Shown: piece by piece, positions 2,585 to 48,086 of the stretch
Numbering within the stretch: position 1 is the first letter of the stretch
Layout: every line of letters begins with the position of its first letter
Assembly: GCA_965205425.1 (NCBI GenBank)
Contig: CBDBGZ010000009.1
Location: forward strand, 672,001 to 736,000
DNA from: Nitrosopumilus sp.
GTDB taxonomy: Archaea > Thermoproteota > Nitrososphaeria > Nitrososphaerales > Nitrosopumilaceae
DNA: 64,000 nt
Direction of reading: 5' to 3'
Translations under genes and position numbers: made by a program
Notes under the pieces: model-generated
The model's database searches: none
Seen by the model: only the letters and a program-made list of their open reading frames with translations
Told to the model about the DNA's origin: nothing

Positions 2585-2658
2585 TGGGCCTAATGAGATT
2601 CGAACTCATGATCACCGCCATGTCGAGGCGGTATCCTAACCAGCTAGACTACAGGCCC
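2585..2658 (-). tRNA. tRNA-Val(GAC)
   Basis: Cloverleaf GGGCCTG...TAGGCCC A; anticodon arm CCGCC-TCGACAT-GGCGG; T loop TTCGAAT. Confidence 0.93.
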
Positions 2659-3462: not shown

Positions 3463-3555
3463 GGGCTTGTAGCGCAGAGTCAATTTGACGCGCAACATGG
3501 ATAGCGCAGTAGCCTCCTAAGTTACAGGTCGAGGGATCGAAGCCCTCCAAGCCCG
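3463..3555 (+). tRNA. tRNA-Arg(CCT) with an 18-nt non-canonical intron at 15/16 (3478-3495)
   Basis: Anticodon arm GTAGC-CTCCTAA-GTTAC; removing 3478-3495 restores the D arm GCGC-AGCATGGATA-GCGC. Confidence 0.9.
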
Positions 3556-35556: not shown

Positions 35557-36417
35557 ATGATGGCTTCAATCATCAACCGCAAGAAGGGAAAAAGTACTTA
35601 CTATTATCTAATCCACAACACAGGAAAAATTCAACATGAAAAATATCTAGGCAAAATAAAACCAAAAAATGTTGAAAAAATCAAGAGAGAGTTCTTGTTA
35701 TCATTATGGTGTGAGGATTGGGAAATAAATCTAAGGAAGATCAAGAAAGGATATTCTGCACAGGCTAAAACATCAATTAAAGACCATCTAAAAGAATTTT
35801 CTTTGTTATTTACACATGATTCCCAAAAAATTGAAGGCTCAACACTGACAAAAAAAGAAACTTTCAACTTACTCCGATTTTCATTAACTCCAAGTAACAA
35901 ACCAGAACATGACATGATGGAGGCAAAAAAACATCACAAAGTGTATCTGCAAATGCTAGAATCAATGCCCAAACTAACTGAAAAGACAATATTGTCATGG
36001 CACAACGAAATGTTTGATAAAACAAAACCAGAGTTTGCAGGAAAATATAGAAAAGATGCCGTATTTGTAACAAACAGCGAATCAACATTTCCTCATTGGA
36101 AATTTATACCCCGATTTATCAAACATTTTCTAAAAGAATACAGGGAATTAAAAAATACCAAACCAGTTCAATTAGCTGGCATTATTCATTTTAGATTTGT
36201 AAGTATACATCCATTTGGAGATGGAAATGGCAGAGTTTCAAGAATGATCATGAATTACATATTAATAGATAATGACTTTCCGCCACTTAACATAAAATAT
36301 TCTGATAGAGAGGGATACTACAAATCATTAGAAAAAGGACAAGTAGAGGAAAACGAGATTCACTTTCTAAAATGGTTCATGAAATATTATATAAAATCAA
36401 ACAAAAAATACATGTAA
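35557..36417 (+). CDS. Fic family protein
   Basis: HPFGDGNGRVSR motif; SQKIEGS inhibitory-helix-like motif. Confidence 0.92.
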   Translation: MMASIINRKKGKSTYYYLIHNTGKIQHEKYLGKIKPKNVEKIKREFLLSLWCEDWEINLRKIKKGYSAQAKTSIKDHLKEFSLLFTHDSQKIEGSTLTKKETFNLLRFSLTPSNKPEHDMMEAKKHHKVYLQMLESMPKLTEKTILSWHNEMFDKTKPEFAGKYRKDAVFVTNSESTFPHWKFIPRFIKHFLKEYRELKNTKPVQLAGIIHFRFVSIHPFGDGNGRVSRMIMNYILIDNDFPPLNIKYSDREGYYKSLEKGQVEENEIHFLKWFMKYYIKSNKKYM

Positions 36418-39082: not shown

Positions 39083-39183
39083 GATATTGTCACAAAATTT
39101 AGTTACGTACAAAAACTCAATGGTGTAATGATTTTTTGAAATTATGCCTAAGTGTTAACCCCTCTAAAATTTTCAGAAAATAG

Positions 39184-39233
39184 AAAAAAAGGCTAGTTCA
39201 GTGGAGAACTAACTCGATCGTCAACCACATTGT
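39184..39233 (-). ncRNA. Antisense trailer of the adjacent tRNA, ending in a hairpin and T7
   Basis: Complementary to the tRNA 3' end, anticodon arm and D arm; hairpin GTTAGTTC-TCCACT-GAACTAGC, then TTTTTTT. Confidence 0.6.
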
Positions 39234-39260
39234 ATTGATAGTTTTTCTAATTAAACATTG

Positions 39261-39332
39261 TGGAGACGTCGGGATTTGAACCCGAGACCTTTCAATTGAC
39301 GATCGAAAGTTATACCACTAAACTACGTCCCC
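39261..39332 (-). tRNA. Atypical tRNA: Ala-type acceptor (G3:U70, A73) with anticodon GTC (Asp)
   Basis: GGGGACG TA GTTT AGTGGTA TAAC T TTCGA TCGTCAA TTGAA AGGTC TCGGG TTCAAAT CCCGA CGTCTCC A. Confidence 0.85.
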
Positions 39333-39376
39333 ACAAAAATAATTGAACCATATCAGTTTTAGTTGTTTTGAAAAAT

Positions 39377-39708
39377 CTATTTTTCTTTTATCTTGGTTTT
39401 TTTAATCAAATGATAGGATTTTGAACTTTTTCCAGTACTGGCAAATCGAGGCAAATTTTTTGGAGTCAATTTATCAAGTTCGACAAGAATTTTTGTTTGC
39501 AGTTGTCTCAAGTCTTTATCAGAAAGTTTGAGCCAATCTGAAAATGCGTTATTTTCATTTTTTTAAAATCCTCATCAGAGATTTCAGGATCACCTAAAAA
39601 TTCTTGCAAATCAAAATCCTCATCAAGTTTATGAAATTTATGATTTACAACATGTTTTAGTTTTTGAATAATTGTAAACATTGCAAGATCTTTTACGTCA
39701 ATTTCCAT
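39377..39708 (-). pseudogene. ~110-aa hypothetical gene upstream of the atypical tRNA, split at an A7 run
   Basis: ORF 39508-39708 continues in the -1 frame as ENNAFSDWLKLSDKDLRQLQ...KIKEK* to 39377. Confidence 0.55.
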
Positions 39709-40535: not shown

Positions 40536-40761
40536 AGACTTTTTGTGTTAAGTTAGGTGCTTAATTCAAATCAAGTGATTTAGAATTAGCAGAGATGTGT
40601 TTAGAAACAAATTGTGCCGGTATGATGTGATAAGTGAGATTGTTTGCGGGATTGTCAATTTCAAGATAAAATGGAAAGAAGAATTTGTTGTAATTCCATA
40701 AAATTAGAAATTAAATGATAGAAAAGTTAGATTTTTGCTTGTAATTGCGCAACTCAATCCA

Positions 40762-41820
40762 TTATTTGAAAAAGAAATTCCTTACTCTTTGAAATCTCGA
40801 GTCATTTATGCCGCCTAGTGTTGGGGTTGGTTTTTCAACTAGGATTCCCTGTGGCCTATACAACAAAATTGCAAGTAAAATTATTCCCAGCAACAAAAAG
40901 TCAAGCCAGACTATATCAAATGGAACAAATCCTTCAAAAGAGTCCTTAAAAAATATGATAAGCTTTCGCAGGGTAACAAAAATCAAGGTTCCAACTAGCA
41001 CACCCTTGTTATTTGCAAGTCCCCCAATGAGAATCATTAGAAACGGCCAAAATGTCCAGCTTGCTCTATCATAAGCAAATGCAATGGTCCCGCCGACATA
41101 AAATGCATACAATGCCCCGCCGATTGCTGCAAGTGCAGCTGAAATCATAATTATTTTGATTCTGGCATTTGTCGTATTTTTCCCCAAGGATTCCGCTGCT
41201 GTTTCATTGTCCCTGATTGCTTTGAGCATTCGCCCCAATGGTGAACGGAGCATCTTCTCACTATATGCATAAACTGCCATTGCAATGCACACCAGACCAA
41301 CTGTAGCTACTGAAAATCGAATCTCATCAGGCAGAAATGATAATGGATCTGGTACTTGAACTCCAAGTGTTCCACCAACTAGTGGGGCATAGTTATTTCC
41401 AATAATTCTTATGCTTTCACCAAATGCCAGTAATGTAATTGCAAGATAGTCTCCACGTAGTCTAATTGCTGGATATGATGTGAGTATTCCAATACCTCCA
41501 CCTATTACTGCTGCTATTGCCAGTGTCAGAAAGAAGATGGCAAAGCCTATCCCCACATTATCCACAAGCCACAAGTTAATTTCAGAGACAATTTGCAGAT
41601 TATCCAAAATATAGTCCCCCTTAATTTGTGCCATCTCTGCAAATATTCTACCAGGAATTGATGCTGCAACAAATGCACCGGCACCAACTGCCAAAACCTT
41701 GCCAAAGTTTGGAATTCCAGCATATCCAAACTCCATATTCAAGCTAAGATTGACAATTGCATAGACTGCAAATATTGCAAGCAAATCTACAAGGAATATT
41801 ATTTCAGTGTTTAGAGCCAT
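40762..41820 (-). CDS. livM: Branched-chain amino acid ABC permease
   Basis: LRGDYLAITLLAFGE, GRMLKAIRDNE.AA.SLG. Confidence 0.9.
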   Translation of the reverse strand: MALNTEIIFLVDLLAIFAVYAIVNLSLNMEFGYAGIPNFGKVLAVGAGAFVAASIPGRIFAEMAQIKGDYILDNLQIVSEINLWLVDNVGIGFAIFFLTLAIAAVIGGGIGILTSYPAIRLRGDYLAITLLAFGESIRIIGNNYAPLVGGTLGVQVPDPLSFLPDEIRFSVATVGLVCIAMAVYAYSEKMLRSPLGRMLKAIRDNETAAESLGKNTTNARIKIIMISAALAAIGGALYAFYVGGTIAFAYDRASWTFWPFLMILIGGLANNKGVLVGTLIFVTLRKLIIFFKDSFEGFVPFDIVWLDFLLLGIILLAILLYRPQGILVEKPTPTLGGINDSRFQRVRNFFFK

Positions 41821-42730
41821 CTCTCCTCAACTTTGACCAGTTTATTCCTGCCAAGCCTTTTGGCGCCAAAAATAATGTCACTACAATGAAAATTAGTGGG
41901 ATTAGCGGACGATATGCAATAAGCCATGCTCCAAATTCTCCAGCCAAAAACCTCGTTCCCAAAATTTCTGTCAGCCCCACCAGAATTCCCCCCGTAATTG
42001 CACCATAAATGCTAAGAAAGCCACCCGTAATACTTGCTGCAAATACACTTGGAATTAGCTGTGGCCCAAGATTCGGGTCTCCCTGAAACCACATTGACAT
42101 TAGTGCTCCTGCAATTCCTGCAAAGCCCCCTCCAAGCAGCCAAGAAACTCCATAGATTAGTTTCACATTAATCCCAACTGTCTCTGCCAGATCAGAATTT
42201 TCAGTAGATGCCCTCATTGCAATGCCAAACTTTGTTTTACGCAGTATAATGTGCAGCGATACTGCAAGGACTGCAACTGCAATTGGCGCTACAAACACAA
42301 TTAATGGCAGTTCCATAAACTCTGCATCATAACTGCGCAGTGAGAATTCCCTTGATGTAATCTGGTATGTTTGGACTATATAGTCTGCAATGATGTTTAG
42401 TAGCGCAATTACTACTAGGTCAAAGGCCAAAGTTGCAATCATTTGAATTGCCTGAGATGCGCCCTTTCGAATCAGGGGTTTTATGATAAACGTGTACAGT
42501 AACACTGCAAGAACTCCAGAAATTACAAATGAGATAGGAACTGCAACATAGGGGGTCATCCCCCAGACATGGGTCACAATCAATGCAACATATACCCCAA
42601 TGGTTGCAAATGATGCATGGGCAAAGTTAGGTACTCTGGTTGTGATGTATGTCAGTGTCAATCCAATACAAAGCAGAGCCAAAAGACTGGCAAAAATTAT
42701 CGCATCAGAAAAAATTGGATCGTATGCCAA
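41804..42730 (-). CDS. livH: Branched-chain amino acid ABC permease
   Basis: GLTL...VPNFAH, TKFGIAMRA..EN..LA..VGIN. Confidence 0.9.
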   Translation of the reverse strand: MAYDPIFSDAIIFASLLALLCIGLTLTYITTRVPNFAHASFATIGVYVALIVTHVWGMTPYVAVPISFVISGVLAVLLYTFIIKPLIRKGASQAIQMIATLAFDLVVIALLNIIADYIVQTYQITSREFSLRSYDAEFMELPLIVFVAPIAVAVLAVSLHIILRKTKFGIAMRASTENSDLAETVGINVKLIYGVSWLLGGGFAGIAGALMSMWFQGDPNLGPQLIPSVFAASITGGFLSIYGAITGGILVGLTEILGTRFLAGEFGAWLIAYRPLIPLIFIVVTLFLAPKGLAGINWSKLRRDGSKH

Positions 42731-42786
42731 GCCATCAACCTACATACAAAACCCTTAATTTCTTTATGCTTTTAAAATGAATCATA

Positions 42787-43542
42787 ATGGTGATTCTGGA
42801 TATTTCAAATATCACAAAGAGTTTTGGGGGCCATACTGCACTTGATGGAGTTGACATAAAATTAAAAGAGGGAAAACTATACGAGATGATTGGCCCAAAT
42901 GGTAGTGGGAAAACCACTCTGATTAATGTAATCTCAGGGATGCTAAAACCTGATGATGGTAAAATTGTCTTTGGGGGCAATGATATTACAAAAAAGGGAC
43001 TCTGCGATACATTTGAGACAGGTCTGGTTAGAACCTGGCAGATTCCCCAGCCTTTTGCAATGCTGACAACTTTGGAGAATTTTGTACTATCAGGCGTAAA
43101 TAACTCCGGAGAGTCATATCTTTTGGCCCCATTAAAATCCAGATGGAAAAATGATGAGCAAAAAATTACAGATGATGCACAAAAAATCATGGAGATGCTA
43201 AATCTGACTAGTCAAAAAGATACGCTTGGCCAGAATCTTAGCGGGGGCCAGCAAAAACTCTTGGAGCTAGGCCGCGCCATGATGTCAGGGGCCAAGATGA
43301 TACTGATGGATGAACCAATTGCAGGTGTGAATCCCACACTGGCCCATGGCATATTTGAGAGAATCTCATCCATATGCAAAAGACAAAAAATTACATTTTT
43401 GATTGTAGAGCATAGGCTCGATATAGCATTGCAGTATGCAGACCATGTTTTTGCAATGAATCAGGGAAAAATTATTACTCAAGGCAGTTCTGAGCAGATA
43501 GTAAAACATCCCAAAGTTCTCAAATCATATCTGGGGGAATAA
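42787..43542 (+). CDS. livG: ABC ATP-binding protein
   Basis: GPNGSGKT, RTWQ, LSGGQQK, DEPIAGVNP, YLGE. Confidence 0.9.
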   Translation: MVILDISNITKSFGGHTALDGVDIKLKEGKLYEMIGPNGSGKTTLINVISGMLKPDDGKIVFGGNDITKKGLCDTFETGLVRTWQIPQPFAMLTTLENFVLSGVNNSGESYLLAPLKSRWKNDEQKITDDAQKIMEMLNLTSQKDTLGQNLSGGQQKLLELGRAMMSGAKMILMDEPIAGVNPTLAHGIFERISSICKRQKITFLIVEHRLDIALQYADHVFAMNQGKIITQGSSEQIVKHPKVLKSYLGE

Positions 43543-44274
43543 ATGTCTCACAAACAATCTGATTTAGTAATTGATGTTAGTGATTTGAATTCAGGATATG
43601 TAAACAGTCATATTCTTTTTGGGGTTGATTTTGAGGCAAAGACAAAAGAGATTACAGTAATTATCGGTCCAAACGGTTCAGGAAAAAGTACGTTGCTCAA
43701 AAGCATTTTTGGTTTGTGTGATGTGTATTCTGGTCAAATCAGATACAACAATGAAGAGATTACAAAGATGGCACCGCATCAAATAGCAAGGAAGAAAATT
43801 GCATACCTGCCTCAGACCAATAACGTCTTTGCAAATCTTAGCATAAAAGAAAATCTTTTCATGGCAAGCTATACACTGGATTCAAAGGTACAGCCAGAGA
43901 GATTCTCTGAAATTTTTGAAACATTTCCTATTTTAAAAAAATATGAAAAATCAAAGGCAAGTACTCTTAGCGGAGGTCAACGCCAAATGCTTGCAATGGC
44001 CATGGCACTAGTCTGTCTGCCAAAAGTTATGCTATTTGATGAGCCCACTGCCAGTCTTTCTCCAAAACTGGCAGATGAGGTATTATCAAAAATAAAACAG
44101 ATCAGAGATGACTTTGGAATTACAGTAATCATGGTTGAACAAAATGTCAAAAGGGCGCTAAAGATGAGTGACTATGTCTATCTTTTGGCAAACGGCAAGG
44201 GTGTGTTCAAAGGAAGTTCAGAGGAGATACTGTCTCATCGGCAACTAGGCAAGCTGTATCTGGGGATCAGTTAA
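43543..44274 (+). CDS. livF: ABC ATP-binding protein
   Basis: GPNGSGKS, LSGGQRQMLA, DEPTASLSP, VEQN. Confidence 0.9.
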   Translation: MSHKQSDLVIDVSDLNSGYVNSHILFGVDFEAKTKEITVIIGPNGSGKSTLLKSIFGLCDVYSGQIRYNNEEITKMAPHQIARKKIAYLPQTNNVFANLSIKENLFMASYTLDSKVQPERFSEIFETFPILKKYEKSKASTLSGGQRQMLAMAMALVCLPKVMLFDEPTASLSPKLADEVLSKIKQIRDDFGITVIMVEQNVKRALKMSDYVYLLANGKGVFKGSSEEILSHRQLGKLYLGIS

Positions 44275-45532
44275 AAATAATCGAATCATCAAGGGTTGTG
44301 TATTTTCCAAGTTCAGTCCAATCTCCATCCCTTATTCCCCATACTTTGTAATCTGCTTGGGCCAGATCCCCTGCATCATTTAGTTTTGTGGATCCGATTG
44401 CCCCCATGTAATTCTCAGCAATTCCAGGTATTGCAGCCTTTATTGCACTGACATCAGTACTCTGAGTTTCAAGCATTGCCAGACCAATTAGCCATACTGC
44501 ATCATATGAGGAATGCACAAAGGTGTTGGGATCAGTGCCCAGAGTCTCACTTAGATGAGTTTGTACCTTTTTGTATGTAGGGTTATCAGCAGGTGCAAAC
44601 TGGACTGTTGTAAATGATACATCAGTTGAGAATTCCAGTCCTATTGGATCAGATACCAGATTGCGTTCCTTTGTAATGGCACCAGGTCCAAACCATCTTA
44701 CCTCGCCTAGTATCTCATGTCCTGATGCTGACTGCATAAACTGCAAGACCTCTGCAAATCCCAAAAACAAGACCCCTACCTTCTCAGATCCATACTCATC
44801 TGTATATTTTTGCACTTTTTGAGCCAAGAGTGAAGTTGATGCAGAAAATTCCGGAGATTCGGGATTATACCTAATATTATCATCTACTATGCCCCCTCTT
44901 TGCATGAATGAATCAGATGCTGATTCTCCAAGTCCGTCACCCCACGTATCTCCCCTCCATACTGGAATCATTACTTTGATTCCCTGGTCATGCATTAGCT
45001 TGGCAATTGCAGGTCCCTGATTAGAGTCATCAGGAATCAGACGAAATACGCTGTCATTTGGGATGGCAAGTGCAGGAGCTGACGAGCAGCAGCTGACTAG
45101 CAACATGTTATTAGAATCAGAATACCCCTTCATGTTTCTGATGTTGGAGCTGGTTTCAGGTCCCACTATAACTCCGATTCCTTTGGCATGCAGTGCAGTT
45201 AGTTTCTCCAATGCAACTACGGGGTTGGTTGCAGAGTCTTCTGAAACCATTTTGAGATGCCATGGCGCATCAATGCCTTGCAGATACTTGTTAAACTCTG
45301 ATACTCCAAACTTTGAGCCCTCATGGTTTTCTGCCCCATGAGTTGCCAAGTCTCCAGTCAATGGAAGAATCAATCCAATGGTTACCTCTCCGGACAATCC
45401 TGTTGCATTAACTGGCACTTGTACAGGATTTTCTGCATCCATACTTTCCGAACCTGCAGATAACACCACATAAGCAACACTGATAATAATTGAAATAGCT
45501 ACGACTGTAATTCCTATTTTTTTATAATCCAC
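44267..45532 (-). CDS. livK: Branched-chain amino acid ABC substrate-binding protein
   Basis: N-terminal anchor, IGLILPLTG, VFRLIPDD, YDAV, G.TKLN..GD. Confidence 0.85.
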   Translation of the reverse strand: MDYKKIGITVVAISIIISVAYVVLSAGSESMDAENPVQVPVNATGLSGEVTIGLILPLTGDLATHGAENHEGSKFGVSEFNKYLQGIDAPWHLKMVSEDSATNPVVALEKLTALHAKGIGVIVGPETSSNIRNMKGYSDSNNMLLVSCCSSAPALAIPNDSVFRLIPDDSNQGPAIAKLMHDQGIKVMIPVWRGDTWGDGLGESASDSFMQRGGIVDDNIRYNPESPEFSASTSLLAQKVQKYTDEYGSEKVGVLFLGFAEVLQFMQSASGHEILGEVRWFGPGAITKERNLVSDPIGLEFSTDVSFTTVQFAPADNPTYKKVQTHLSETLGTDPNTFVHSSYDAVWLIGLAMLETQSTDVSAIKAAIPGIAENYMGAIGSTKLNDAGDLAQADYKVWGIRDGDWTELGKYTTLDDSIIFN

Positions 45533-45604
45533 GTAAATTTTGTAAAACTTGTGATAATTAAACCTTTGAATTATGAGAGAACGGGATTTGAGACCAAAAC
45601 AAGA

Positions 45605-47884
45605 TCATTGAGACTTGTCATGGACGTAATACTGTGCATCTGAGGACAAAATCTCCAAGGCTTGCATCTCTGAGAGTTTTATGTATTGTTTTGTCTCATT
45701 GTCAATCCTCTCACCAATGACATAATCAATTGTGAGTGGATCCTCTGGTGTGCTCTGTATTGCACTACTGTCAAAAACGCCAGTAGCCCGGGCGACTTCG
45801 TGCTCCATTATATCATTCCATGCCGAATGCATTCTAGTCATGGATGTGGTGGACTTGTCCTGATGTCTTTCAAATTCATCAGGCGTTATTTTGCTCCAGG
45901 TCATAGAATCATTGTGCTCCCACAAGTTGCCAAATTGATCTGCATATGTGGAATACCGCCTGTCTATTTGTGTCAATTCCAATGTAATGCTAGCATCCTG
46001 GCTTGACCTCTTTGAGAATAGCTCATGTGTGACAGGCTCTAATAGGGATTCACCTGTAAACTCGACACCGTCGTTGATGTATGTGACAGTGCTGCGTCTG
46101 TCAAAGTCAGTTGCCGAGATTGCAAGGACATTTGACTTTAATGGTGCAGATATGCTAAAGTCTATTCCAATGATATAGCACAACTCATTAAGCGAATCAC
46201 TGGCACACTTTACCTTGGATATGCTAGAGTCTGTATCCTCCTCATTTACCAGAGATTCTTTTTGCTCATGGACTATTCCTGTAATGGTATAGTCATCTGG
46301 AATTGTATAGTCTCTGTCTAATTGTATGATAATGTCAGTCTCTGCCTCTGATGCCTTGCCGATTTCAGGCACTCCCAAAGACAGGGTCACATCGCGTAGT
46401 ATCTTATCTGTGTACACCTTGATATCGACATGGTTGGTATCACCAATTATTGATTCAGTGAGTACAAATTCGGTGTGGAAGTTGTCTGTTATATCCAGGG
46501 TATAGTCATTAAATGTGAATCCATTCTCCACTAGCTGTGCAGATGATACCTCCCATGACTTTCCAAAGGTAGGTTTCTTTTTCCAGTCATTGCTAGAGCC
46601 TCCACTAGCAGGCTCCTCAGGGTCCATCGGTGGCTCTGGAGGAATAGTAATTGTAAGATCACCTTCCAAGTTGGTAGTACTTAACGTAGACCCTACGGCA
46701 CCAGCATGAAGTCTTAATACAGGTGGATCATATGGTTCATTATTACTATTATCATCTCCCGTGAAAGAAACATTTATTCTATTCCACAGAGTTCTGTCTA
46801 CGAGGGTTATGGTAATTGTATTACCATCAACAACAAAAGTAGATGCAAATGGCGGGGTCTCATTTGTTCCTATTAGACGCAACTCGAACGGGATTGTGGT
46901 TCCTAGAAAATCAATTATCTGGAAGTTGGAGAGATTTACACTGTCAGGGACAATATCATCATTAAAAGTAACTATCAGTTCCCCGCTAAGATCTTCACCA
47001 TCATCATCAACAATATGATTGTATAATACACTAGTAGCAGATAACTGCAAACCATCTACGCCTATACTTGCTTGATTAGAGCGTGCAGATGTAACACCTG
47101 AATTGGTGGCAGTTGCAGTAAATGTGTGAGTAACAAAATTAGGTGATGTCCCTATTGGCACAGATATCTCCCAAAAGCCATTACTGTCTACGGGGGTATC
47201 ACCAACAGACGTGCCACGGTCAAACAGCTCAATGGAATGGCCTGTTAGTCCATTACCAATAACAGTCAGAATACGATCTATTCGGTCTAAATCAATATCA
47301 GAATCTATGATAGGTGGAGGTACAACACCTGGCTGTAAAATAGTCAATGGAATACCAGCAAACCCAATAATTTCAAGGCATTCTCCTCCCCGCTCAGCAG
47401 TAGCACATACGGCGTGGGGGATGTTGGGGGTTATATTGGTGGGACCATTACTTCTTAAAACGGGTATACTGATATGTGGATCGCTGATAGCCGTATCTAT
47501 TCTATCAGATATAGCAGATGTGGGGGATACGGTAATCGTATTACCACTAATATCATGAGACGATGACTGTAGATTTAGCGCGCGTTGGATGTCCCCATTA
47601 ACAAACCCACTAGGGAAAAAGAATAAGGATGGTTCGAAACTGTCAGGGTCAATTCCCTCATTAAAAACTATTGTCAAGTCCTTTGAGCCAGTATCATAAA
47701 ATACGTTGAGAATAGCCAAATCAATATCTGGCCTCTCCCCATATACATCATGACTGGGAATGGCAAGTGTAAGTACAGAAAAGAGTAAAACTGATGATAG
47801 TAACAGAATTTGAGGCTTCACTTTTAATCCAAAACTATTCAAGCATATAAATGATTTTGTAAAAAGACAGACATGACCAACCAT
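45605..47884 (-). CDS. Large secreted/surface protein with Ig-like domains
   Basis: Signal-like segment, VDSNGFWEI...HTFTATAT Ig repeat, Pro/Gly linker, KPTFG C-terminal domain; start uncertain. Confidence 0.75.
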   Translation of the reverse strand: MVGHVCLFTKSFICLNSFGLKVKPQILLLSSVLLFSVLTLAIPSHDVYGERPDIDLAILNVFYDTGSKDLTIVFNEGIDPDSFEPSLFFFPSGFVNGDIQRALNLQSSSHDISGNTITVSPTSAISDRIDTAISDPHISIPVLRSNGPTNITPNIPHAVCATAERGGECLEIIGFAGIPLTILQPGVVPPPIIDSDIDLDRIDRILTVIGNGLTGHSIELFDRGTSVGDTPVDSNGFWEISVPIGTSPNFVTHTFTATATNSGVTSARSNQASIGVDGLQLSATSVLYNHIVDDDGEDLSGELIVTFNDDIVPDSVNLSNFQIIDFLGTTIPFELRLIGTNETPPFASTFVVDGNTITITLVDRTLWNRINVSFTGDDNSNNEPYDPPVLRLHAGAVGSTLSTTNLEGDLTITIPPEPPMDPEEPASGGSSNDWKKKPTFGKSWEVSSAQLVENGFTFNDYTLDITDNFHTEFVLTESIIGDTNHVDIKVYTDKILRDVTLSLGVPEIGKASEAETDIIIQLDRDYTIPDDYTITGIVHEQKESLVNEEDTDSSISKVKCASDSLNELCYIIGIDFSISAPLKSNVLAISATDFDRRSTVTYINDGVEFTGESLLEPVTHELFSKRSSQDASITLELTQIDRRYSTYADQFGNLWEHNDSMTWSKITPDEFERHQDKSTTSMTRMHSAWNDIMEHEVARATGVFDSSAIQSTPEDPLTIDYVIGERIDNETKQYIKLSEMQALEILSSDAQYYVHDKSQ

Positions 47885-48086
47885 AACTAATCAACCCTCA
47901 AACTGTTAAAAAGAGCGTCGCAGTAGTCTATTGGACAAATCCGTTTTCCTTTCCATCTTTTGTGTCGAAAACAGAACCCTACTTTTCGTCACACTATTTG
48001 CCAGTTTGATCGGATCAATCTCAGGCACAACTTAGGCATGAACAATTTAGAAATATTTCTTGTTATTTGTTCCAACTAAGGGGGTA

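Follow-up and report, generated by a model that had tools for sequence, protein, structure and literature searches.

The window analysed here, a 64,000-nucleotide stretch of a Nitrosopumilus sp. genome (2.2 Mb in 9 contigs), carries on its minus strand a tRNA gene in which the identity elements of tRNA-Ala are combined with an aspartate anticodon. A complement of part of this tRNA, a hairpin and a T-run follow on the same strand from 36 nt downstream of it, and together with a TATA-like box they delimit a predicted small antisense RNA gene. The features of the locus are:

39261..39332, minus strand: tRNA with the alanine identity set (G3:U70, A73, G2:C71, G4:C69) and the aspartate anticodon GUC; predicted toxin
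39298..39300, minus strand: anticodon GUC, reading GAC/GAU
39345..39385 (position approximate), minus strand: weak promoter-like region of the tRNA, score 3.6
39248..39255, minus strand: TATA-like box of the predicted antisense RNA gene
39184..39228, minus strand: predicted antisense small RNA of about 45 nt, predicted antitoxin; 5' end placed by TATA spacing
39214..39224, minus strand: unpaired 5' seed, perfect 11-nt complement of tRNA positions 28-38 (anticodon loop and 5' stem)
39192..39213, minus strand: 8-bp hairpin of the small RNA
39194-39204, minus strand: hairpin loop and 3' strand complementing tRNA positions 8-18 (D arm), with one G:U
39184..39190, minus strand: T7 run, terminator-like
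39083..39338, no strand assigned: extent of the cassette common to paralogues, from paralogue alignment

A complete tRNA with mixed identity

ARAGORN annotates the gene as tRNA-Asp(GUC) (39260-39332, minus strand), the label that a scanner had been expected to give, and the Rfam model RF00005 matches 39261-39332 with 65 bits (E 7.5e-12), ranking 10 among the 60 tRNA matches in the genome. Together with inspection of the sequence, these matches bear out the complete tRNA with G3:U70, A73 and GUC of the preliminary description. The acceptor stem contains the pairs G1-C72, G2-C71, G3.U70 (39330/39264) and G4-C69 and is followed by A73, the anticodon loop reads U32 C33 G34 U35 C36 A37 A38, and the molecule has a 7/5 branch and a 5-nt variable loop. 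All stems had been described as intact, which is correct apart from U13.U22 in the D stem and one wobble pair, G30.U40; the fold has a z-score of -3.3, with none of 200 shuffles equally stable. C33 had been considered a special sign but is found as well in a housekeeping tRNA-Val(GAC) (window 2585-2658, minus strand) and in 5 of the 38 archaeal family members described below. Contigs from four public runs (three studies), one of which (X5) covers only 39264 upward and one of which may derive from the assembly's own source run, show no differing letter in the tRNA. Since all four show GUC and no other letter, the anticodon is not a miscalled GGC, and a sequencing error is ruled out.

Among the 43 housekeeping tRNAs of the genome, G3:U70 occurs in three, which are exactly the three tRNA-Ala genes. 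The tRNA at 39261..39332 also carries A73, G2:C71 and G4:C69, the bacterial alanine set in the available part of a review of identity elements (PMC9976931); the minor alanine element G20 is absent. The marks of aspartate identity in bacteria, G73 and C38, are replaced by A73 and A38, whereas the housekeeping tRNA-Asp at C9:482367 carries both. The genome encodes an intact AlaRS (897-aa open frame), and homologues of the tRNA keep G3:U70 and A73. These features support, at the level of sequence, a tRNA of alanine identity with an aspartate anticodon. Recognition of G3:U70 in archaea is known from structural work. In the table of identity elements, as far as the review is available, the archaeal Ala and Asp rows are blank (PMC9976931), and alanylation by the host AlaRS would follow from extending the bacterial and eukaryotic identity rules. 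The alanine identity with an aspartate anticodon given in the preliminary description is thus supported; that description had, however, considered the gene in isolation and overlooked the predicted antisense RNA next to it.

GAC and GAU together account for 6.0% of codons in the long ORFs of the genome. On the tRNA gene content, in which a normal tRNA-Asp coexists with the GUC gene, reassignment of aspartate codons to alanine is rejected. The genome holds seven extra tRNAs with G3:U70 and A73 (three GUC, two GAA, two AAG) at scattered positions. Elsewhere in its tRNA set, a tRNA-Arg(CCU) with a D-loop insert, probably an intron, lies at window 3463-3555 (plus strand) and is missed by ARAGORN; several housekeeping tRNAs are duplicated across contigs, the IS load is heavy, and the listed contamination of the whole genome is 5.2%.

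A predicted antisense RNA directed against the anticodon loop

The predicted duplex of the small RNA with the tRNA has an energy of -39.8 kcal/mol, which leaves a net co-fold energy of -14.2 after the own folds of both strands; the corresponding predicted net binding is 0.0 for the housekeeping tRNA-Asp and -8.0 for tRNA-Ala(GGC). The sole exact complement of the seed in the genome is the adjacent tRNA, and a genome-wide search gave no exact match to an mRNA. With a matrix trained on 43 housekeeping promoters (mean score 5.6), the promoter of the small RNA scores 6.2 and that of the tRNA 3.6. In sequence the small RNA resembles tRNA positions 8-38 copied in inverted orientation and since diverged, which would also be its origin. 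The cassette at 39083..39338 is shared with paralogues in the same genome (G000), with 84% identity over 225 bp at C9:254460-254682 and 76% over 173 bp at C2:54826-54993. An archaeal C/D or H/ACA guide RNA was considered and rejected: on inspection the small RNAs have neither C/D boxes nor an H/ACA hairpin-ACA, the locus gives no Rfam match to a small RNA, and the module is also bacterial. The adjacent antisense RNA shifts the reading of the locus from an odd mistranslator to a putative masked toxin with its own antidote.

The module recurs in related archaea

Pattern searches gave matches in 7 of 201 genomes of the family and in 16 of 140 genomes of the genus, with two false matches in the latter search (one non-tRNA, one housekeeping Ala). 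A complementary pattern with G35 matched in 8 of the 140 genus genomes; all of the tRNAs recovered are short-loop members, and their anticodons are GAA, GUC or GAG, never of the Ser, Thr or Pro type. Overall the spread within the genus is patchy (about 17 of 140 genomes), and among 155 genomes of other families of the order four pattern matches were obtained, none of them a tRNA by inspection. Because the patterns demand a fixed T loop, all family counts are lower bounds. The resulting archaeal set comprises 38 distinct genes from 19 genomes and the record L242; two false matches, two duplicate sequences and one A3:U70 variant were left out. That variant type is seen at L004 (G014:C1:1813558), where a member that has lost the alanine mark lies beside an integrase and has a convergent partner.

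At a mean identity of 62%, 36 of the 38 members retain all seven acceptor pairs. Positions 4-7 vary (18 variants in 38), and many members have a mismatch at 27:43. The anticodons, collected with a pattern that excludes G35, are AAG (11), GAA (10), GUC (8), CAG (4), UCU/CUC (2) and three singletons. The combination of G3:U70 and GUC, for which a search of relatives had been suggested, is thus found in 8 of 38 members. Freely drifting anticodons among homologues had been named as an observation that would speak against a mistranslator; the anticodons do vary, yet they are confined to few types, with the Ser, Thr and Pro types missing from the 140 genomes searched with the G35 pattern. In G000 C4:165846-166125 a complete AAG module is followed by a complete GAA module in tandem arrangement; both have a divergent partner of their own, and the AAG tRNA has a C4:A69 mismatch.

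A perfect complement of 10-18 nt to the tRNA's own arm lies within 140 nt in 32 of the 38 archaeal G3:U70 tRNAs with non-Ala anticodons (mean 13.4), compared to none of 30 housekeeping tRNAs. When arms and flanks were exchanged between loci, complements of at least 10 nt appeared in 7 of 262 cross pairs with the same anticodon and 8 of 1136 with another. Of the six archaeal members below 10 nt, three have a match where it is expected that is shorter or includes wobbles, the 17-nt match of L172 falls just outside the search window, and L036 and L183 have none. Leaving out L036, L183 and L172, for which no partner was found within 140 nt, gives a set of 35 modules, in which the cognate pair ranks first in 33 cases by co-fold and in 32 by duplex energy; the mean co-fold energy is -18.3 kcal/mol for cognate pairs and -1.9 for the others. 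A strict TATA motif (TTTAW) occurs at the expected spacing in 28 of the 35 modules versus 13% of shuffles, and the small-RNA promoter scores above the tRNA promoter in 28 of 34. Each of the tRNA positions 28-40 is Watson-Crick paired with the partner in 30-35 of the 35 modules, using 2-4 pair types, with the match itself defining the register of pairing. An out-of-sample test was made on nine members that were found later: six reach 10 nt and eight show the architecture, L427 being the one without it.

The partner may be divergent and upstream, tandem and downstream, convergent (L004, L201) or tandem and upstream (the CPR loci L247, L262 and L266), and all four arrangements yield the antisense strand. 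The modules consist of two linked non-coding RNA genes with cognate complementarity, the genes being predicted from promoter-like and terminator-like signals.

Modules in bacteria, viral contigs and allo-tRNAs

A scan of GTDB genomes for G3:U70 with GUC gave at least 113 loci from 9 of 64 parts, which extrapolates to about 900, false matches such as tRNA-Tyr included. Most loci are from Acidobacteria, others from CPR, Actinomycetota, Chloroflexota and Bacteroidota. Filters on structure and flanks were passed by 56 of the 113, one of them archaeal, and 50 of these 56 have a perfect complement to their own arm. In tandem cases a sigma-70-like promoter (9 or more of 12 positions) immediately precedes the complement in 45 of 47, versus 0 of 47 in the opposite orientation. 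Specificity is weaker here because the arms are alike: no more than 27 of 56 loci have the cognate match as their best one, and complements of 10 nt occur in 341 of 3052 cross pairs. A normal tRNA-Asp is also present in four of five Acidobacteria-type genomes, whose G73 Asp tRNAs have a partner in none of six cases. In the family of one such bacterial genome, 25 of 121 genomes match a broader pattern, a tally that contains five rows that are false or Ala and includes the unpublished genome G510; the anticodons are GUC, GCG and AUC. Acidobacterial copies repeatedly adjoin core genes (gltX/glnS, mqnC, pdxS).

On viral contigs, 4 of 11 plausible tRNAs have a partner and 7 have none; a first viral scan had returned mostly ordinary tRNA-Ala with a 4-nt variable loop, and the module was not found in plasmid and phage collections. 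We also assembled fifteen long-arm tRNAs of the 8/4 type, one from L221 and 14 from 9 of 151 genomes. Nine of these allo-tRNAs have an own-arm complement of at least 10 nt, and by inspection all fifteen are accompanied by a promoter, a complement with G:U pairs and a terminator. L221 (2800-4200) holds a G3:U70 GUC module, an 8/4 allo-tRNA(GCG) module and two partner-like copies that match GUC and AUC arms and that no tRNA adjoins.

Mismatches within the complementary region are more often G:U than A:C, with counts of 22 and 11 in archaea (33 of 35 distinct arms), 20 and 6 in bacteria (43 of 48) and 12 and 4 in allo-tRNAs (12 of 15); the nominal p values are 0.04, 0.005 and 0.04, and as members are related, counts and p values overstate independence. 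The excess of G:U favours selection on RNA pairing. An intact tRNA is mostly accompanied by a partner, the exceptions being L183, L036 and L427 in archaea and L205, L226, L237 and L225 in bacteria. Conversely, a small RNA is kept beside a broken tRNA in G007 (L002), where the 5' half of the tRNA is missing, and at G000 C4:46600, where the tRNA has a 9-nt insertion. That the small RNA persists where the tRNA is broken or gone (G007, G000 C4:46600, L221) is an order of decay that fits an antidote.

A possible toxin-antitoxin pair of two RNAs

The observed sequence features, linkage and covariation, and the two transcripts predicted from them, are best accommodated by a two-RNA toxin-antitoxin pair composed of a mistranslating tRNA as toxin and an antisense RNA as antitoxin, to which we assign a probability of roughly 0.6. 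Toxicity and rescue we infer as follows. The host AlaRS would charge the tRNA with alanine via G3:U70 and A73, and the resulting Ala-tRNA(GUC) would compete with tRNA-Asp and place alanine at GAC and GAU codons throughout the proteome. The small RNA, complementary to the tRNA as described and with a separate, stronger predicted promoter, is predicted to use its unpaired 5' seed to nucleate on the anticodon loop and then to zip into the D arm, unfolding the tRNA. If the cassette were lost or its transcription stopped, the small RNA would be gone sooner than the stable tRNA, which would then poison the cell, with addiction or abortive infection as the outcome. According to the available part of a yeast study, engineered tRNA-Ala with GAA or CAG anticodons slows growth, and only 25 of 60 non-Ala anticodons reduced it (10.1101/2022.11.23.517754). 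C33 and U13.U22 may make the present tRNA a poorer decoder. No enrichment of defence genes is seen near the modules (PADLOC matches for 6 of 49 chosen neighbours, a count that stands with no background set), and a link to defence islands is not convincing.

The first alternative is a useful, regulated mistranslation, in which the small RNA would be a host switch that releases the tRNA in response to stress, so that proteins are deliberately diversified or damaged, with no addiction involved. The core-gene neighbourhoods of the Acidobacterial copies fit a kept host function as well as addiction, the tRNA promoters are weak, and mistranslation by tRNA-ProX is reported, in the accessible portion of PMC10404621, to raise antibiotic tolerance in E. 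coli. We nonetheless regard such a switch as unlikely in view of the patchy spread (about 17 of 140 genus genomes), the seven scattered copies with three anticodons in one genome, the fact that it is the tRNA that decays first, and the lack of any regulator gene common to the module neighbourhoods.

Somewhat less probable still is a tRNA mimic that, charged or not, never reads codons and acts as a nuclease decoy, sponge or alanine donor, its complex with the small RNA being the working unit. C33, U13.U22 and the 27:43 mismatches of many members would suit such a molecule, as would the inactivity in translation of several allo-tRNA(UAU) species (PMC5389517, available part). It would leave unexplained, however, why the anticodons are limited to a few sense types for which replacement by alanine is drastic; a dedicated mask over the anticodon is best explained by an anticodon that does harm, and nowhere else in the genome is there an exact target for the seed.

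We consider it improbable that the complement serves mainly as a leader or trailer in cis, folding back within one precursor to block tRNA maturation or working as a T-box-like attenuator. A read-through transcript of the locus does fold into a non-cloverleaf structure (-52 kcal/mol, z -5.5), and cis folding may contribute in tandem cases, but promoter-like and terminator-like signals of its own accompany every complement, and since a complement in divergent or convergent orientation cannot lie on one transcript with the tRNA, cis folding cannot be the general mechanism.

Integrases often use tRNA genes, and attachment-type 3' copies of tRNA are visible among the bacterial loci examined for normal tRNA-Asp. 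A neutral relic, either a decaying tRNA pseudogene that has undergone inverted duplication by chance or what is left of an integrase attachment site, would agree with the surrounding IS debris and with a small RNA that resembles an inverted copy of tRNA 8-38, but is very improbable and already largely refuted by acceptors intact in 36 of 38 members at 62% mean identity, by covariation, fixed spacing, promoters and terminators in both archaea and bacteria, and by the fact that attachment copies are direct and reach the tRNA 3' end, neither of which applies to these complements.

Relation to known systems

Allo-tRNAs of the 8/4 and 9/3 types (PMC5389517, reviewed in PMC7609411) are, in the available portions of these sources, tRNAs of Ser or Ala identity with a non-cognate anticodon that are extra to the normal set, GUC and GCG being among their commonest anticodons. 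They place Ser at Leu codons and are lethal to E. coli, those with G3:U70 insert Ala, and they have been found near toxin-antitoxin genes (PMC5389517, in part). The tRNA at 39261..39332 shares with them the disagreement of identity and anticodon and the status of an extra gene, but differs in its canonical 7/5 shape and short arm, having neither an 8/4 or 9/3 branch nor a long variable arm. The available parts of the text and supplement of Mukai et al. 2017 (PMC5389517) contain no antisense partner that we could find, whereas the 15 of the 8/4 type collected here show one. The tRNA-ProX/ProRSx pairs of Streptomyces and Kitasatospora are likewise natural mistranslating tRNAs of canonical shape that are toxic in E. 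coli, yet they have Pro identity and a dedicated synthetase gene, while no synthetase recurs beside the archaeal modules; the word 'antisense' is absent from the available part of that paper (PMC10404621). Variants of tRNA-Ala in which a G3:U70 body with a foreign anticodon inserts Ala are, as partially available (10.1101/2022.11.23.517754; PMC12084884), single variants with no partner RNA rather than a conserved mobile cassette.

CreTA resembles the module in that toxin and antitoxin are both small RNAs, translation is the target and the outcome is addiction; in CreTA, however, CreT acts by sequestering a tRNA of the host, and CreA is a transcriptional repressor that works via CRISPR-Cas (PMC8501985, available part), whereas here the toxin would itself be a tRNA that the antitoxin is predicted to bind directly, with no protein involved. 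Membership in CreTA was rejected, as the locus has neither a CRISPR-repeat-like antitoxin nor cas genes: no CRISPR RNA families were found in the window, and no cas domains among 148 scanned neighbours. We rate the tRNA-antisense pairing as falling outside the known kinds. If shown to be a toxin-antitoxin system, it would belong with the RNA-RNA class ('type VIII', including SdsR-RyeA), with a mechanism that is new on both sides. A search of full-text literature, with subscription papers and bioRxiv supplements largely outside its scope, returned no antisense partner of a miscoding tRNA.

Extended beyond this locus, the toxin-antitoxin reading predicts a protein-free class across archaea, bacteria and some viruses, in which a tRNA charged by an anticodon-blind synthetase (Ala or Ser identity) garbles the proteome unless held silent by an antisense RNA that arose through inverted duplication of the tRNA's 5' half, a class that would give allo-tRNAs their missing function; we hold this to be only a little better than an even chance. 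The toxin would then itself be a tRNA and the antidote a mask of its anticodon, all within about 250 bp and free of protein. It is also a candidate explanation for the retention of lethal allo-tRNAs in genomes, a question posed in the available part of PMC5389517, and suggests that suppressor and mistranslating tRNAs could be switched on and off in a programmable way. Because annotators list the tRNAs of these modules as ordinary tRNA-Asp, -Phe, -Leu or -Arg, carrier genomes have incorrect tRNA counts.

Neighbouring genes and other unusual tRNAs

The tRNA had been called island-borne. IS pieces do flank it, but they are weak support for an island, as each has about 15-36 BLAST matches in the genome. 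No dedicated protein partner recurs beside the modules, the large neighbour clusters being transposases. A family of 55-69-aa ORFs, AbrB/MazE-like by eye and with no Pfam or PADLOC match, lies beside four modules (L003:1664-1828, L041:1640-1846, L183:1227-1412 and G000 C9 upstream of 254430). A Fic-domain gene (Pfam Fic; PADLOC PDC-S04/SoFic matches) is located at window 35557-36417, 2.8 kb from the tRNA. The region at window 40700-48000 has a GC content of 40-42%, compared to about 31% elsewhere, and contains ORFs that resemble branched-chain amino acid ABC transporter genes, as well as one of 759 aa with no Pfam match.

The genome also has extra long-arm G73 tRNAs of the Ser type with GAA or CCU anticodons (G000 C8:120793-120882, C9:254932-255019, C9:901281-901367 and C9:356125-356209). 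The three with GAA have no clear antisense partner within 500 nt or genome-wide; upstream of the CCU gene lies a hairpin whose loop complements the tRNA's own variable arm (10 nt). At L380 (G073:C1:1677240-1677325), a Ser-type tRNA(GAA) is accompanied by a divergent element that complements the anticodon loop (10 nt), followed by a T-run, and by inspection also the variable arm (11 nt). A further long-arm, tRNA-like gene with A73 at G000 C9:1042184-1042266 has an unpaired anticodon stem and is probably decayed.
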